Source of the DNA: Pyrobaculum sp.
GTDB lineage: Archaea > Thermoproteota > Thermoprotei > Thermoproteales > Thermoproteaceae
NCBI GenBank assembly: GCA_046293555.1
Contig: JBKBOT010000006.1
Location: 1-64,000, forward strand
Reading direction: 5' to 3'
Length of the DNA stretch: 64,000 nucleotides
In this document: positions 12,818-18,735 of the stretch, in pieces
Layout: each line of letters begins with the position of its first letter
How positions within the stretch are numbered: position 1 is the stretch's first letter
Program-made: the position numbers and the translations under genes
Notes under the pieces: model-generated
The model's input: the letters and a program-made list of their open reading frames with translations, nothing else
Told to the model about the DNA's origin: nothing
Database searches by the model: none

Positions 12818-13714
12818 ATGTATATTGGCCTCATAAGGCCGTACGAGGTGGAGTTCAACCCTGGGGATATCTCCGACCTAGAGGAGGCAATTAGAAAGAG
12901 GGGACACACGCCGGTGAGGATATATGTGGACATGTTGGAACTACATATCGGCTCTAAGATTGAGGTGCGTCACGCCGTGGGGAAAAGCCAGCCGGCAGAG
13001 GTGGGGGTAGATGGCGCCTTGTTGAGACACCTGGGGATATTTAGAGATTTTGAACAATTTCTACACAGGGTGTGGGCGGTGGCCACGTTGGAGGAGATGG
13101 GGATATATGTCATGAATCCAGTAATCCCCTGGATGGTCGCCGGCGACAAGACCGCGGCCTTGTTGAAACTGGCCAAGGCGGGCCTCCCGGTGCCCCCCAC
13201 AGTGGTGTCTGAAAACATGTTTGCCGGCTATAGGGCGGTGAAGGAGTTCGGGAGGGCTGTGGTTAAACAGACTAGAGGCGCCATGGGCTACGGCGTGTTT
13301 CTAGTAGAGGACCCAGACGTGGCTTTTCACATCTTCTCAATGTTGGTAAATATAAACAAGCCTATCTACGTCCAGAAGTATGTAGAAAAGGGGCGGGGTG
13401 ACTACAGGGTGGTCGTGGTGGGCGGGCGGGCGGTGGGGGCGGAGTACAGACAGTCAGAAGGCTGGAAGACAAACGTGGCGCAGGGGGCACGGCCGCTGGC
13501 CGCCAGGCTGACGCCAGAGCTAGAGGAGCTGGCGGTAAAGGCGGTGAGTACCCTATCTCTAGACTACGGCGGGGTAGATGTGGCTGAGACAAGAGAGGGG
13601 TACCTCATCCTTGAGGTCAACCCAACTATGAGCTGGCAGGGCTTTAAGGCCGCCACGGGGATAAACCCGGCGGAATATATAGTGGACCACCTGTTGGCCA
13701 AGATAAAAAGCTAG
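12818..13714 (+). CDS. RimK-family ATP-grasp ligase (LysX/ArgX-like)
   Basis: DK...L...GLPVP.T, G..G.GV, Y.Q.Y, DYRVVVVG, WKTNVAQG, YGGVD, EVN. Confidence 0.88.
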   Translation: MYIGLIRPYEVEFNPGDISDLEEAIRKRGHTPVRIYVDMLELHIGSKIEVRHAVGKSQPAEVGVDGALLRHLGIFRDFEQFLHRVWAVATLEEMGIYVMNPVIPWMVAGDKTAALLKLAKAGLPVPPTVVSENMFAGYRAVKEFGRAVVKQTRGAMGYGVFLVEDPDVAFHIFSMLVNINKPIYVQKYVEKGRGDYRVVVVGGRAVGAEYRQSEGWKTNVAQGARPLAARLTPELEELAVKAVSTLSLDYGGVDVAETREGYLILEVNPTMSWQGFKAATGINPAEYIVDHLLAKIKS

Positions 13715-14628
13715 CGGCCTTTCAGGAGGTAGAGAAAAACCGCCTTTGCTGTATGCATCCTGTTTTCCGCCTGGTCCCACACGGCGGACTGGGGGCCATC
13801 TAGCACCTCGTCTGTAACCTCCTCCCCCCTGTGTGCCGGCAGGCAGTGTAGAAAGACAGCCCCCCTCCCGGCGGCTTCCATCACCCCGCTGTTTACCTGA
13901 TAGGGCTTCAGGAGGCGTCTTCTCTCTTCTGCCTCCTTTTCGAAACCCATGGAGACCCATACGTCCGTATAGACGCCGTCTACTCCCGCCACCTCGCTGA
14001 CAGAATCTGTAAAGTATATATGTCCCCCAGTCCGCTCTCCGCCTAGCTCTTCCAGCAGTTTGTAATTCCACAGCTGTTTTGGCCCCACTAGCCTCACCTC
14101 CCACCCAAGCTTGACGCCAATTATGGCGAGGCTGGTGGCCACGTTGTTAGAAACGTCGCCGACAAAGGCTACCTTCAGGTTTCTCAACCTGCCGGCTCTC
14201 TCCCAGAGGGTGAGGGCGTCTGCCAGAGCCTGTAGGGGGTGGTGTCTGTCCGATAGGGCGTTTACCACAGGTATGTCGCTATGTCTAGCCATCTCCTCGA
14301 GGGTGTTGTGCGTATATACTCTTGCGGCCACCAGAGAGGCGTATCTAGACACAACCCTCATGGTGTCGGCAATAGTCTCCCCGCGGCCGAGCTGGAGCTC
14401 ATTTGGGCTAACGTAAAGAGGCTGCATGCCCAGCTGCGCCGCCGCGGAGGCGAGAGAAAGCCTAGTCCTTGTGCTAGGCTTTTCGAAATACAACACGGCC
14501 ACCCTCCCGGCGAGAAGCGGCATGTAGACCTCCCCCGCTCTATACCTGGCCTTAAGCTCTCTGGAGATGTACAAAAGGTCTTCCACCTCGTGGGGCTGGA
14601 ACTCTAATAGCGTCAAGAGGTGTTTCAT
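13711..14628 (-). CDS. argF: ornithine carbamoyltransferase
   Basis: FEKPSTRT, HPLQALAD, YTDVWVSMG, FLHCLP, QAENR. Confidence 0.97.
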   Translation of the reverse strand: MKHLLTLLEFQPHEVEDLLYISRELKARYRAGEVYMPLLAGRVAVLYFEKPSTRTRLSLASAAAQLGMQPLYVSPNELQLGRGETIADTMRVVSRYASLVAARVYTHNTLEEMARHSDIPVVNALSDRHHPLQALADALTLWERAGRLRNLKVAFVGDVSNNVATSLAIIGVKLGWEVRLVGPKQLWNYKLLEELGGERTGGHIYFTDSVSEVAGVDGVYTDVWVSMGFEKEAEERRRLLKPYQVNSGVMEAAGRGAVFLHCLPAHRGEEVTDEVLDGPQSAVWDQAENRMHTAKAVFLYLLKGR

Positions 14629-14644
14629 GAAATATTTAACGGCT

Positions 14645-16030
14645 TTATTTATTTACCGGAAGCTCTTTTAACACAAGGCTAGTCAAGGTGGAGGCAACCC
14701 CCTTGACCTCCCTAATGTGTTCAATAACGTTGTTAAGATCTTCGGTGTTTTCAGCCACGACCTTCACCACGATGTCGTAATCGCCTGTAACCTCAGACAC
14801 TGCGGCCACGTTTTTCAACGCCGCCAGGCGTCGCGCCACGGAGGTGGTGTAGACGTTATTAGCCACCTTAATCCAGACGTAGGCCTCTATGTGCCTATTT
14901 ACTCTCGCCCTGTAGGCCGTCTTGGTGATTTTCTCTAGTATTTCCAACAGGTCGTCATCGCGGAGCCGCCTCACGTTGAGACTTTTCACCTCTTCTACCA
15001 ACCTGTCTACCACGTCCAGGGGGACCGTGATGCCCATACGTTCTAGCCTATACTGTATGGCTTTCCTCCCGCTGTATTTATCTAGAGAGAAGTCCCGTTC
15101 TCTCCCCACAACTTCTGGAGGTATGGGCTCGTAGGTCTCCGGGCTGGCTATAACTCCAGCCTGATGTACGCCAGCCTTATGTGTAAATACGTTTTCCCCA
15201 ACAATGGGGAAGTTAGGCATTGTGGGGATCCCGCTGGCAGTCTCCACAAGGGCTGTGACCCCCGGGAGTTTTTTCAAGTCTACCAACTGGACGCCGCGGT
15301 GGTAGTAATATGCCGCCGCGAAGACCTGTAGCGGCGTGATGCCCGCCCTCTCCCCAAGGCCGTTGACAGTAGTGTGGACGACATCTGCTCCCCCCTCCAC
15401 AGCCGCCAGACTGTTAGCTACAGCCATGCCGAAGTCGTTATGGGCATGTATGTCTAACCCCACTGTGGGCACAGCCCTTTTGGCCATAGAGAAGACCTCT
15501 CTCGCCCTATCTGGCGTAAAGACCCCCACCGTGTCTGCAATACTGACCCTATCTGCGCCAGCCTCGTGGGCTGTCTTCACCACCTGGATCAAGTAGTTTA
15601 AGTCAGCCCTAGAGGCGTCTTCTGCGGTGAATCTCACAGCCACGCCGTGAGATCTAGCGAGCGAGACCATTTCCGCAACTATCTGGAGGGCCTCCTCCCT
15701 GCTTTTCCTGTGTTTATGTCTCAAATGGATATCGCTAATGCCGTAAAAAACCGCCACTCTATCTGGCTCCAGAGAGGCTGCGTTCTCCAGATCTCTCCTT
15801 ACGGCTCTGGAGTGGACTACTATCTCGCCTTTAATCTCCCCGTTTTTCTTCATGGCTACTATCTTCTTAACTGCCTGTCTTATGTCAGGAGCCACGTTGG
15901 GATCTCCCACTTCAATCATCCCAACTCCTATATCCGACAGCGCCTTTGTGATTCTAACCCGCCACTCTTCGGAAAATATGACGCCGGGGGTCTGCTCCCC
16001 CTCTCTTAAGGTGGAGTCTAGAATCGCCAC
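14645..16030 (-). CDS. homocitrate synthase with C-terminal Lrp/AsnC (RAM) ligand-binding domain; true start may be ATG 16050 via a -1 frameshift
   Basis: LDSTLREGEQ, RFTAED, HAHND, GLGERAG, HKAGVH; C-terminal EVTGDYDIVVKV...IR.VKGV..T.T. Confidence 0.88.
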   Translation of the reverse strand: MAILDSTLREGEQTPGVIFSEEWRVRITKALSDIGVGMIEVGDPNVAPDIRQAVKKIVAMKKNGEIKGEIVVHSRAVRRDLENAASLEPDRVAVFYGISDIHLRHKHRKSREEALQIVAEMVSLARSHGVAVRFTAEDASRADLNYLIQVVKTAHEAGADRVSIADTVGVFTPDRAREVFSMAKRAVPTVGLDIHAHNDFGMAVANSLAAVEGGADVVHTTVNGLGERAGITPLQVFAAAYYYHRGVQLVDLKKLPGVTALVETASGIPTMPNFPIVGENVFTHKAGVHQAGVIASPETYEPIPPEVVGRERDFSLDKYSGRKAIQYRLERMGITVPLDVVDRLVEEVKSLNVRRLRDDDLLEILEKITKTAYRARVNRHIEAYVWIKVANNVYTTSVARRLAALKNVAAVSEVTGDYDIVVKVVAENTEDLNNVIEHIREVKGVASTLTSLVLKELPVNK

Positions 16031-16050
16031 TCTTTCCCCTCTCGAGCCAT
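16018..16050 (-). other. leader mini-ORF MAREGKEWRF* with G-GGG-AAA(Lys) candidate -1 slip site
   Basis: ATG 18 nt after TTTTATAT (16076-16069); a -1 slip on GGGG (16039-36) joins the homocitrate synthase frame. Confidence 0.6.
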
Positions 16051-16079
16051 GTCGCCAAGATGAGACAGATATAAAAGCC

Positions 16080-17063
16080 TTACGCCACCAGAGAGGCCAC
16101 GTGTTTACCCACCTCTCTCGTGGCGTTAGAGCCGCCGATGTCAGGCGTCTTCACTCCCGCCTCTAGGGTCTTCTCCACAGCCCACCTTATGGCGCCAGCG
16201 GCCTCCTTTTCGCCAAGCCATTCAAACATCATGGCGGCAGACAGAATGGCGGCAATGGGGTTTGCAACACCTCTACCAGCTATGTCAAACGCGGCGCCGT
16301 GTACCGGCTCAAACATGGCCTTTCTGTCGCCAATATTGCCGCTAGGGGCCAAGCCGAGTCCCCCCGCCACCTGTGCCGCCAGATCTGTCAAAATATCGCC
16401 ATATTGGTTTGGAGTTAACACCACGTCGAAGCGGGTGGGGTTCCTCACGAGCTCCATAGCCGCGGCGTCTACATACATCTGGTCTACCTCTAGTCCTTTC
16501 AGCTCTTCTAGCGCCACGTCTCTAAAAAGCCCATCTGCCACTCTCAACACGTTCGCCTTGTGGACTATGGTGACTCTCTTTTTCCGCATTTCTGCATACC
16601 TCCTGGCCACCCTGGCCACCCGTCTGGTCCCCTCCTCGGTGATGACCTTAAGCGCTATGGCCACGCCGCCGGCTTTATACTCTGCGCCTATGTATACATC
16701 CTCCACGTTTTCTCTCACAAAGATGCAGTCAATAGGCCTTATCGCCGGGACGCCGGGGAGGTTTTTTACAGGCCTGATGTTGGCATATAGCAGATATCTC
16801 GCCCTAATTAAAGAGGTGACGTCAAAAGCGGACTCCCCCACAGGCCCCTTGAATATAACGTCTGCGGCATCTGCCAGCTTTAAGGTCTCAGGCGGCATGG
16901 CCACCCCGTATCTTCTAAACGCCTCGTCGCCAGCCTCCGCCATCTTTATCTCAAACTCCACGCCGTATTTGGCGGCAGCGGTGTTTACTACATACATCGC
17001 CGCCTCTACTACCTCAGGCCCGATGCCGTCTCCCGGAATTACGAGAAGCCTATATGGCGCCAT
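16080..17063 (-). CDS. leuB: 3-isopropylmalate/homoisocitrate dehydrogenase
   Basis: [42 protein letters not shown]. Confidence 0.92.
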
Positions 17064-18182
17064 AAGACCTCACGACCTCTTTTAGTACCACCTCATCTAC
17101 CCTAATCTTTCTCGCTGCATATTCTTTAACTTTCTCCAAGACGTATGTAACCAGCTCTTCGTCTGGCTCAATCCCAAGGTTTTTCAAAGCCCACTCTACT
17201 GAGTGTTTGCCGGAGTGTTTACCCAACACAATCCTCCTCCTGTTGCCCACATCTTCTGGCCTCATGGGCTCGTAGGTAAATGGGTTATTTAACACCCCAT
17301 GTACATGTATCCCCGCCTCGTGGCTAAAGGCGTTCTCCCCCACCACCGCCTTGTTGGGAGGCAGAGAGATGCCAAACAGTTTTGACACTAGTTGAGACAA
17401 CTCGTAGAGCTTATGTAGCCTTATGTTTGTCCTGTATCCCAACAGGAAGTGTAACGCGGCCACCACTTCTTCCAACGCCGCGTTTCCAGCCCGCTCGCCG
17501 AAATTATTTACCACCACCTGCGCTACCTCCGCCCCAGCCTCTATTGCCGTCACCGTGTTGGCTACAGCCATGCCGAAATCGTCGTGGCAGTGGACATGTA
17601 TAGATACTGGCGGCAGCCTGTCTTTTAGGTAAGTTATTAGGTAGGACATCCTGCCGGGAGTCATCACCCCCACTGTGTCTGGGACGTTTATCTCGTCTGC
17701 CCCCGCCTCTATGGCGGCTCTATAGGCCTCCACTAGAAACTCCAAGTCGCTCCTAGTGGCATCCTCGGCGCTAAACAATACCCTCACCCCGTGAGACTTG
17801 GCGTAAGTCACCACCTCCTCTATCTTCTTGATTACCTCACTGCGGGTCATCTTTAGTTTGTACTTCATATGTATGTCAGAAGTGGCGATAAACAGGTGGG
17901 CTATGTCTATATCTGCGGAGAGGGCGGCATCTACGTCAGATTTGTTCATCCTGGCCAGACTTGCCACTTCCGCGTTTTTCACCTCTCTGGCGATAGCCCT
18001 AATTGCCAACACCTCCTCTCTAGAAACTGCGGCAAATCCGGCTTCTATCATGTCTACCCCAGCGTCGTCTAGGGCAATTGCAATCTGTAGTTTTTCTTGG
18101 GGTGTTAGAGCCACGCCGGGGGTCTGCTCTCCATCTCTCAGAGAGGTGTCAAAGATCTTTATGACACGAGCCCCGAAGCCAT
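17050..18182 (-). CDS. leuA: 2-isopropylmalate synthase (short form, no C-terminal regulatory domain); predicted to need a -1 frameshift after ATG 18182
   Basis: [42 protein letters not shown]; the only in-frame ATG (18201) overlaps the TATA box. Confidence 0.85.
18159..18182 (-). other. leader mini-ORF MASGLVS* with G-GGG-CTC(Leu) candidate -1 slip site
   Basis: ATG 18 nt after GAAAAG-TTTTTATATA (18216-18201); a -1 slip on GGGG (18174-71) joins the leuA frame. Confidence 0.65.
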
Positions 18183-18200
18183 ATAGAGGGAAAATCGACA

Positions 18201-18238
18201 TATATAAAAACTTTTCAGCTCTCTAAAAGATATATATA
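18201..18238. promoter_or_regulatory. divergent BRE/TATA promoters of leuA (-) and leuD (+)
   Basis: minus strand GAAAAGTTTTTATATA; plus strand AAAAGATATATATA 17 nt before the leuD ATG. Confidence 0.7.
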
Positions 18239-18255
18239 GGCGTTTTTTACAGCCT

Positions 18256-18735
18256 ATGCGCATAAGGGGGAGGGCTTTGGTATATGGAGACAAGATAGAC
18301 ACAGATGTCATCATCCCGGCGAAATACCTCGTATATACAGACCCCAAGATACTTGGCCAACACGCCATGGAGCCAATAGACCCCCACTTCCCCCAGAAGG
18401 CAAATGGGGCGATACTGGTGGCAGGCCGCGCCTTCGGCATGGGCTCCTCTAGAGAGCAGGCAGCCATAGCGCTAAAGGGGGCTGGGGTTTTGGCGGTAGT
18501 GGCTGAGAGCTTCGCAAGGATCTTTTTTAGAAACGCCATAAATGTGGGGCTGCCGGCGCTACAAGTGCCAGGCGTGAGGTCTAAAGTGAGGGAGGGGGAT
18601 ATGCTAGAAGTAGACATAGAGGGGGGCCACGTGGTGAATTTAAACACAGGCGAGGTGATAAAAGGCAAGCCCCTCACCGGCCTGCCCTTAGAGATCCTAA
18701 AGGCGGGTGGGCTGATTAGCTTTCTGAAGAAGTAG
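18256..18735 (+). CDS. leuD: 3-isopropylmalate/homoaconitate dehydratase small subunit
   Basis: GDKIDTDVIIP, FGMGSSREQA, SFARIFFRNAINVG. Confidence 0.95.
   Translation: MRIRGRALVYGDKIDTDVIIPAKYLVYTDPKILGQHAMEPIDPHFPQKANGAILVAGRAFGMGSSREQAAIALKGAGVLAVVAESFARIFFRNAINVGLPALQVPGVRSKVREGDMLEVDIEGGHVVNLNTGEVIKGKPLTGLPLEILKAGGLISFLKK

Follow-up and report, generated by a model that had tools for sequence, protein, structure and literature searches.

A putative amino-acid-sensing frameshift device in the first codons of leaderless biosynthetic mRNAs of Thermoproteaceae

The stretch of Pyrobaculum sp. DNA analyzed here (assembly GCA_046293555.1, contig JBKBOT010000006.1, positions 1 to 64,000; 64,000 nucleotides, hereafter the window) carries three consecutive minus-strand genes, which are leuA-like, leuB-like and homocitrate-synthase (HCS)-like. 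At the leuA-like and HCS-like genes the promoter-proximal ATG opens a short leader open reading frame (ORF) and not the enzyme frame, and within that leader a GGG codon preceded by G is followed directly by a codon for leucine (CTC) or lysine (AAA), respectively. Based on the comparative analyses described below, these leaders very probably act by amino-acid-sensing frameshifting at an empty A site, in which the quantity sensed would be charged tRNA. From the conserved sequence patterns we infer strongly that the ribosome slips and that this slipping depends on tRNA charging. It is also probable that in the Thermoproteaceae at least 15 transcription units, covering 11 amino acids (Leu, Ile, Val, Lys, Arg, Thr, Trp, Phe, Tyr, Cys and His) and also tryptophanyl-tRNA synthetase (TrpRS), are under a previously undescribed, charging-dependent and codon-programmed frameshifting in the first codons of leaderless mRNAs (-1 at G-GGG-N and +1 at CCC-CAU), with OR logic in tandem units and with a sensor codon that predicts the specificity of paralogues, namely 2-isopropylmalate synthase (IPMS), HCS and citramalate synthase (CMS).

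Leaders of the leuA-like and homocitrate-synthase-like genes

All plain coordinates are window positions; G000 denotes the window's assembly, f1 the window's family (genera g1-g3) and f2 the sister family. The leader layouts, the TATA spacing, the -1 offset and the GGGG followed by CTC or AAA were found exactly as an earlier note on this DNA had described them (Table 1). The ATG of the Leu leader is +1 relative to the leuA-like enzyme frame; that is, the enzyme frame is -1 relative to the leader. With family hidden Markov models the leuA-like gene scored 506.9 bits (TIGR02090) and the HCS-like gene 518.6 bits (TIGR02146), above the respective cut-offs of 484.75 and 413.55, and the leuB-like gene scored 397.8 bits with TIGR02088, slightly below the cut-off of 409.8. 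Since the ATG of the leuB-like gene overlaps the 3' end of the leuA-like gene, it is presumably part of the leuA-like operon.

In order to compare leaders, orthologous loci from 40 relatives were aligned at the 5' end, with the catalytic DTTLRDGEQ motif setting the register. All 24 of the f1 leuA-like loci have a TATA box, a spacing of ~18 nt, (T/C)ATG, one to five codons and then C-GGG-GCT-CG, which in the leader frame reads xCG GGG CTC, with CTC in 24/24. Likewise, an ATG, one to three codons and G-GGG-AAA are found in 24/24 of the f1 HCS-like loci whose 5' end is intact, and a TATA-like box stands at the same spacing in all 24. The conservation extends to third positions of the enzyme frame. 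In the leuA-like loci G-GGG never varies (24/24), and neither do the last bases of the enzyme codons GGG and GCT. In the 24 HCS-like loci GGGGAAA is invariant and the last base of the enzyme codon GAA is again fixed, but the enzyme codon after it changes (AGA, AAC, AGC, ATT, ACC or AGT) with its first base always A. Selection therefore acts at the nucleotide level, which means on CTC and AAA as read in the leader frame. Conservation among orthologues had been named in the earlier note as a check on its proposal, and G-GGG, the cognate codon and an ATG out of frame with the enzyme are indeed kept throughout both sets; neither in-frame ATGs in their place nor a varying codon after GGGG, both of which that note held to speak against it, was found.

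Among the genomes searched the leuA leader is confined to f1. In 77 anchored archaeal leuA-homologue loci from many phyla it was present in only five, all from Pyrobaculum, Thermoproteus or Thermoproteaceae; one f2-like leuA homologue (L338) had been flagged solely through an unrelated ATG-GGG-GTA. In f2 itself no such motif was found at leuA or HCS, and the starts there are mostly ordinary, which allowed the leader-encoded residues of f1 to be compared with residues that are encoded in frame. The predicted fusion products begin MASG/ARVIKIFDT for the leuA-like gene (the slash marks the change of frame) and MAREG/ERVAILDSTLREGEQ for the HCS-like gene, and the N-termini proposed earlier, MASG/ARVIKIFDT and MAREG/ERVAILDS, agree with the sequence. 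The first of these aligns with f2 LeuA, which starts normally (...E-T-G-V-R-Y-V-R-F-L-D-T-T) and whose in-frame N-terminus ...ETGVRYVRFLDTT is the counterpart of the f1 fusion MxSG/. In the DNA, f2 leuA reads ACG GGG G.., an in-frame run of five G, where f1 has TCG GGG with four. Since the five G of f2 are in frame and f1 has four, re-reading one G would restore the ancestral LeuA-like protein, and this difference suggests how the device arose. Two further comparisons came from G009, a divergent g1 genome, in which aroD-chorismate mutase (aroD-CM) starts normally with MAPLACGA (predicted elsewhere, MG/VLICGA) and hisG starts normally with MESQPILLAIPS (predicted, MPEADSP/ILFAVPN). All three natural controls agree with the predicted products, which argues that the leader-encoded residues belong to a real fused protein.

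The placement of the leader ATGs is that of ordinary leaderless starts. The starts of TATA-like hexamers peak at -27/-26 from 209 leader ATGs versus -26/-27 from the ATGs of 521 ordinary G000 ORFs, and a pyrimidine precedes the leader ATG in 142/209. Leaderless transcripts in Pyrobaculum were reportedly described by Slupska et al. in 2001.

Other leader-like arrangements were seen at leuA genes. The f2 leuA loci L025-L030 share a conserved GGTGGnnTAGATTGCTCArG, ~40-70 nt upstream of the DTTLRDGEQ codons and with no G-GGG. Read from its TTG, this element is a mini-ORF of 4-5 codons (TTG CTC (Leu) ARG...), one base ahead of the enzyme frame, and in three loci its stop overlaps the enzyme ATG or GTG (ATGA/GTGA); it may be a different Leu-sensing leader. 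The leuA homologue of a Thermoprotei archaeon (L337) has no in-frame ATG, GTG or TTG after the last stop and no GGGG, and an out-of-frame leader, ATG GAA TTG GTT ... TAA, lies one base ahead of its enzyme frame.

At the other end of the HCS-like gene, the C-terminal ~85 residues (window 14645-15000, minus strand) match the LysM-type regulator model NF040947 (E 4.5e-19, residues 373-456); because this stretch is a RAM-like domain, lysine may also act allosterically on the protein. Two neighbors were named from their translations. An ornithine-carbamoyltransferase-like ORF (13711-14628, minus strand) may share the Lys-leader transcript, since it starts only 17 nt beyond the HCS-like stop, and a RimK/LysX-like ATP-grasp ORF (12818-13714, plus strand) is convergent to it.

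Table 1. Features of the two window leaders and their genes, and further cognate leaders found in G000 (contig:position).
Feature	Position	Strand	Details
leuA-like promoter	18201..18216	-	B recognition element (BRE)-like GAAAAG, then TATA box TTTTTATATA at 18210-18201
Leu leader ORF	18159..18182	-	ATG GCT TCG GGG CTC GTG TCA TAA, 7 codons + stop; 18 nt between TATA box TTTTTATATA and ATG 18182-18180
leuA-like slip site G-GGG	18171..18174	-	P-site GGG 18173-18171; -1 re-pairing would be on 18174-18172
leuA-like sensor codon CTC (Leu)	18168..18170	-	in the A site while GGG is in the P site
Leu leader stop TAA	18161-18159	-	from sequence
leuA-like enzyme frame, short-form 2-isopropylmalate-synthase-like	17050..18174	-	374 codons from slip site
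leuB-like isopropylmalate/homoisocitrate dehydrogenase	16080..17063	-	ORF list and family model
HCS-like TATA box TTTTATAT	16069..16076	-	18 nt before leader ATG 16050-16048
Lys leader ORF	16018..16050	-	ATG GCT CGA GAG GGG AAA GAG TGG CGA TTC TAG
HCS-like slip site G-GGG	16036..16039	-	GGG 16038-16036, preceding G 16039
HCS-like sensor codon AAA (Lys)	16033..16035	-	from sequence
Lys leader stop TAG	16020-16018	-	from sequence
HCS-like enzyme frame	14645..16039	-	464 codons from slip site; -1 versus leader ATG
TrpB-like	C1:71005		ATG GCC TCG GGG TGG; sensor Trp
trpD-trpE-trpG-trpA	C1:72362		ATG GCT TCG GGG TGG; sensor Trp
TrpRS	C16:21155		ATG GGG TGG; sensor Trp
Prephenate dehydratase (pheA)	C8:56640		ATG CAG GGG TTT; sensor Phe
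aroD-chorismate mutase	C27:18132		ATG GGG TAT; sensor Tyr
tkt-N, tkt-C, aroB, aroA	C28:8485		...GGG TAT...GGG TTT; sensors Tyr+Phe
thrC, then aspartokinase-like gene	C29:2799		ATG GAT TCG GGG ACA; sensor Thr
Acetolactate synthase large subunit (ilvB)	C9:33943		ATG TCG GGG GTA ACT TCG GGG CTC; sensors Val+Leu
LysX	C40:5574		ATG GGG AAA; sensor Lys
Carbamoyl-phosphate synthase small subunit (carA)	C20:25651		ATG TCC AAG GGG CGA; sensor Arg
Weakly cysteine-synthase-like pyridoxal-phosphate (PLP) enzyme	C12:19665		ATG CGG GGG TGT; sensor Cys

Extent of the putative regulon

G000 was scanned for promoter-proximal ATGs that open a leader of at most 16 codons with an X-XXX homopolymer and with a -1 frame that is open for at least 120 codons near its 5' end. 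The rows obtained were 23 for G (21 ATGs), 3 for A, 1 for C and 5 for T, and about half of the G hits were amino-acid genes in which the next codon matches the product of the pathway (Table 1); relaxed criteria added carA and one further TGG leader. As a frame control, 24 G-GGG leaders in G000 had a long -1 ORF versus five with a long +1 ORF, a comparison in which the canonical-start criterion was too loose. The earlier note had proposed such a scan, and other biosynthetic genes do bear the motif with their own cognate codon. Its scope, the Leu and Lys genes, was correct for both but too narrow, given a family-wide regulon with tandem units and a +1 variant.

Several scan hits were rejected. 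That at GatE, with a non-cognate Pro codon, has a plain in-frame GTG (MDYGALGLK) and serves as an internal control; ThyX, A-type ATPase B, an aldo-keto reductase, a MoCF domain protein, an adenosine-kinase-like protein and two family-less ORFs were judged to be chance or ordinary hits, and an aminoacyl-tRNA-synthetase-like ORF of 974 amino acids (aa) from the +1 scan has an in-frame ATG. A leader ATG GCC GCG GGG TGG was seen before an ORF of at least 100 aa at a contig end (G000:C69:2597-2904, minus strand). Neither this ORF nor a 941-aa ORF on C2 had an NCBIfam match, and it is possible that the former is a further Trp-regulated gene. Beside the trp operon, a cystathionine-gamma-synthase-family gene (G000:C1:76027-77197; L413:5228-6397) starts at an ordinary leaderless ATG in frame (MRRGTIPV...) behind a strong TATA box; the device seems not to serve the Met pathway here, so not every biosynthetic gene uses it.

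To determine how widely the cognate codon is kept, the leaders were tallied over the f1 orthologues of ten families, leaving out f2 and f3 loci and the truncated L055 and L091. The motif, with the leader ATG at +1 to the enzyme frame, was present in 209/217 loci and the codon after GGG was cognate in 209/209 (Table 2). The f2/f3 loci outside the tally (trpD L092-L098, ilvB L114-L119, thrC L135-L142, leuA L025-L030 and HCS L056-L058) lack the motif and mostly have ordinary starts.

Table 2. Motif and sensor codons in the f1 orthologues of ten families.
Family	Loci with motif	Codon after GGG and exceptions
leuA-like	24/24	CTC
HCS-like	24/24	AAA
trpD	14/14	TGG
ilvB	15/15	14 GTA + CTC/CTT; G009 has G-GGA-GTA + GGG-CTC
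thrC	15/15	12 ATT + ACA/ACG (Ile+Thr); 3 Thr only
pheA	24/26	TTT 12, TTC 12; the other two G-GGA-TTC
lysX	23/25	AAA; two g2 loci operon-internal with ATG
aroD-CM	22/25	TAT 19, TAC 3; G009 ordinary GTG; two g2 loci unclear
carA	26/26	CGA
TrpRS	22/23	TGG; one g2 locus ordinary ATG

Smaller families gave the same picture. A third IPMS/HCS paralogue (a long form that is truncated in G000) has ATG (T/C)CG GGG ATT/ATC in 12/12 relatives, and its Ile codon was predicted before inspection on the assumption that the enzyme is a citramalate synthase. The trpB-like leader has TGG in 5/5, the cysteine-synthase-like leader TGT or TGC in 6/6, and the leader of the aro operon (tkt) has tandem Tyr, Trp and Phe units in 4/4 relatives of g1, with a Tyr and a Trp unit in one genome of g3. 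The sensors of the three paralogues (Leu, Lys and Ile) point to IPMS, HCS and CMS as the respective specificities. Where the sensor varies, it varies synonymously in the leader frame (ACA/ACG, TTT/TTC, TAT/TAC, CTC/CTT, ATT/ATC and TGT/TGC) while the enzyme residue changes; for example, ACA/ACG overlies AGT, GGT, GAT, AAT or GGC, and TTT/TTC overlies codons for Tyr, His, Leu, Arg or Gln.

G-GGA replaces G-GGG at three loci, the g2 pheA loci L171 and L172 (G-GGA-TTC) and the Val unit of ilvB L113, and at L171 and L172 re-pairing would need a wobble of the tRNA-Gly(UCC) type. G009, to which L113 belongs, has ordinary starts at aroD-CM (L212) and hisG (L317) and retains the device at leuA, HCS, carA, thrC, pheA, trpD and TrpRS; this genome is a natural loss or replacement series.

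The hisG leader is the mirror image of the others. It has no G-GGG; instead, a promoter-proximal ATG leader with CCC-CAT precedes hisG in the +1 frame in 21/24 f1 loci (examined in relatives: L295, L296, L298, L299 and L306-L326, with L315 and L322 left out as the anchor motif was not found there). CCC-C permits perfect +1 re-pairing of tRNA-Pro, and one genome, G007, has a tandem CCC-CAT CCC-CAT. The g3 loci have ATA after CCC, and two loci lack any start. In G000 (C36:11693-12241) and G001 hisG lies within an operon and has a normal ATG, and a normal ATG is also found in G009.

Proposed mechanism and its alternatives

Of 242 units, 229 have their slip site at leader codons 2-7. The codon before GGG is most often TCG (100), ATG (61) or CAG (29). 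The sole shared requirement is a G before GGG, a tetramer for the P site only and not the classical X-XXY-YYZ heptamer. After a -1 slip the A-site codon would always begin with G (GCU, GAA, GUG, GUU, GUA, GAC, GAU, GGU or GCG), and the residues concerned (Ala, Glu, Val, Asp and Gly) are never the sensed amino acid. We propose that on a leaderless mRNA the 5'-terminal AUG opens the leader ORF and not the enzyme frame. When charged cognate tRNA is plentiful, the ribosome would read past the sensor codon and stop a few codons on, with no enzyme made; when it is scarce, the A site would stay empty and peptidyl-tRNA-Gly would slip -1 onto an identical GGG, a codon starting with G would then fill the A site, and translation would proceed in the enzyme frame to give a leader-enzyme fusion. 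Tandem units would form an OR gate (Val+Leu at ilvB, Ile+Thr at thrC, Tyr+Trp+Phe at the aro operon), since all of them enter the same open enzyme frame and starvation for any one product would suffice. At hisG a mirror-image +1 slip would occur at CCC-C with CAT as the sensor. As a speculation, slippage at codons 2-7 may be made easier by how little 5' tail a leaderless mRNA has at that point.

Structured RNA was looked for at the leaders. Over 60 nt downstream in the ten families no conserved stimulatory structure was found (mean z -1.29 to +0.26, and no conserved alifold helix). The region 15800-18400 of the window had no Rfam match at E <= 1 and so no match to a T-box covariance model, and a bacterial-type terminator scan found no terminator-like site in either leader region (2 hits, inside leuA, versus 1.6 in shuffled sequence). 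The structure and Rfam results bear on a T-box-like RNA, in which uncharged tRNA would pair directly with the codon after GGGG. The specifier-codon logic and the presence of an aminoacyl-tRNA synthetase, TrpRS, among the members are in its favor, but with no Rfam match or conserved structure, and with an element that lies 4-20 nt from a leaderless 5' end, within an ORF and in a fixed frame, it is the least probable of the explanations considered. The lack of a conserved structure fits a -1 slip at a limiting aminoacyl-tRNA, with an empty A site, for which a review states that no stimulator is needed (PMC8211752).

Several points weigh against charging-dependent frameshifting. Both window genes possess a conventional in-frame start, ATG 18201 in the leuA-like and GTG 16030 in the HCS-like gene. 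Internal initiation is possible where the enzyme frame reads GTG right after GGG, as it does for the Trp and Cys sensors, and at g1 hisG, where an enzyme-frame ATG follows CCC. With four bases and no stimulator, the slip site may support a low yield. We infer the transcription start at the leader ATG from promoter geometry alone. The counts overstate the number of independent observations, as genomes of kin are not independent. ARAGORN, run with and without intron mode on the fragmented G000, called 35-46 tRNAs, several of them odd, and no tRNA-Gly; the program may miss tRNA genes of this lineage, or these genes may be in portions that were left unassembled. A rule that sensors are rare codons also failed, with CTC at 19%, AAA at 42% and TTT at 60%, and only CGA rare (2% of Arg codons).

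The in-frame starts, both of which the earlier note had named as alternatives and which are present in the ORF list, would reduce the out-of-frame ATG and GGGG to coincidence, or to a promoter or initiator element acting at the level of DNA. The ORFs from these starts (18201-17050 and 16030-14645; 383 and 461 aa) are complete by family models. However, the A of ATG 18201-18199 is the last base of the leuA-like TATA box, placing that codon partly within the promoter, and neither start is conserved in the orthologues. A stop lies in the enzyme frame between TATA box and ATG in many orthologues, and from the last stop to nine codons past the slip site no enzyme-frame ATG, GTG or TTG is present in 10/24 leuA-like and 13/24 HCS-like loci. 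Nor would a DNA element follow the pathway amino acid over more than 14 gene families. Ordinary starts are thus very improbable. Chance as such we regard as excluded because of the 24/24 and 24/24 conservation, the excess of G in the scan and the match to the cognate codon.

A second possibility is that stalling on the leader does sense the amino acid and the enzyme arises from separate initiation, at a non-canonical or internal start or by reinitiation beyond the leader stop, with GGGG serving to bind the ribosome or to set a spacing. In the enzyme frame, NTA-A or GTG-A often overlaps the leader stop, and the GTG after GGG (Trp and Cys sensors), the ATG after CCC (g1 hisG) and GTG 16030 would all fit such initiation. 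Against this, the overlapping enzyme-frame codons at the leader stop of the leuA-like loci are mostly GTA, ATA, TTA or CTA, which are not start codons; 15/26 carA loci, like the 13/24 HCS loci, lack any ATG, GTG or TTG before the conserved core (for carA, from the last stop to nine codons past the slip site), and in 8/26 carA loci a stop in the enzyme frame directly precedes GGG. Moreover, separate initiation demands neither a G before GGG nor a strict -1 offset, and the alignment of leader residues with in-frame residues of normal orthologues is expected only for a leader-enzyme fusion. We therefore consider separate initiation improbable.

Recoding without sensing, either by constitutive -1 slippage at G-GGG or by addition of one G to the G4 by RNA polymerase, is improbable to the same degree. 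A run of four G is short for polymerase slippage. Both the missing in-frame starts and the G4 of f1 versus the G5 of f2 require only that one G be re-read or added, and homopolymer runs are the substrate of transcriptional slippage according to a 2016 review (PMC5009743). Constitutive recoding would, however, leave unexplained the cognate next codon in 209/209, the restriction of sensor variation to synonymous codons of the leader frame and the provision of one unit per product in multi-product pathways. Amino-acid-sensing frameshifting covers all three and is the reading we favor.

Relation to known systems and significance

In bacterial leader-peptide attenuation (trpL, leuL, thrL, the ilvBN leader, hisL and pheL) it is likewise a ribosome on a short leader ORF that reports charged cognate tRNA and so sets how strongly the biosynthetic operon is expressed. 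E. coli has multivalent leaders, with Thr+Ile at thr and Val+Leu at ilvB, and those of Thermoproteaceae at thrC (Ile+Thr) and ilvB (Val+Leu) run in parallel. Unlike attenuators, the Thermoproteaceae leaders have no terminator/antiterminator hairpins and no 5' untranslated region (UTR), overlap the gene, carry one codon per unit and not codon runs, and would have as output a frame change that fuses leader to enzyme, not a transcription decision. T-box riboswitches also serve regulons of biosynthesis and aminoacyl-tRNA synthetase genes with one specifier codon per gene, but there a structured RNA in the 5' UTR binds tRNA directly, and no such RNA was found at the window leaders. Since the defining RNA structures of both families were sought and not found, the leaders fall outside them.

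The elementary step would be that of hungry-codon -1 frameshifting, a stimulator-independent slip of the P-site tRNA at a starved A site, described in E. coli (Gallant and Lindsley 1992, as cited in PMC8211752) and with a natural role that the 2016 review calls unclear (PMC5009743). It is known as an error or as a laboratory effect; in the Thermoproteaceae it would be a device that selection has conserved before specific genes. Classical -1 programmed ribosomal frameshifting shares with the leaders an overlapping -1 ORF and a slippery sequence, but its heptamer and stimulator are absent from them.

RF2 (prfB) and antizyme use +1 shifts at a stop codon in single genes, with stimulators (an internal Shine-Dalgarno sequence or a pseudoknot). 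The Thermoproteaceae leaders differ in using sense codons for at least 11 amino acids, mostly -1 shifts and no detectable stimulator, at codons 2-7 of leaderless mRNAs; the likeness to RF2 is that this would still be ribosomal frameshifting with feedback logic. In RF2 and antizyme, as the 2016 review puts it, the frequency of frameshifting at a slow A-site codon gauges factor or metabolite supply in negative feedback (PMC5009743). The fucA1 gene resembles the present genes as an archaeal gene expressed via -1 ribosomal frameshifting. Its site is a mid-gene heptamer that joins two long ORFs and has no known link to amino-acid supply. According to a 2021 review, this case, in Saccharolobus solfataricus, is the only one reported for archaea (PMC8211752).

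No prior description of the device was found in the full-text literature searched, a search that most subscription journals lie outside, and within that literature it has no described counterpart as a control of amino-acid biosynthesis. If true, it would constitute a new class of gene regulation beside attenuation, T-boxes and repressors, give hungry-codon frameshifting its first natural regulatory role, as a sensor, and offer synthetic biology a minimal (~10-nt) amino-acid sensor with a swappable codon. Attenuation and T-boxes need 5' leaders, which Crenarchaeota with leaderless mRNAs do not have, and to our knowledge pathway-level amino-acid sensing in archaea, especially in such Crenarchaeota, is largely open. 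The device would do by translation alone what attenuation and T-boxes do in bacteria. With it, cellular frameshifting in archaea would grow from a single reported gene to a regulon, and the puzzling starts of many Pyrobaculum and Thermoproteus genes, whose N-termini are likely mis-annotated, would be accounted for.

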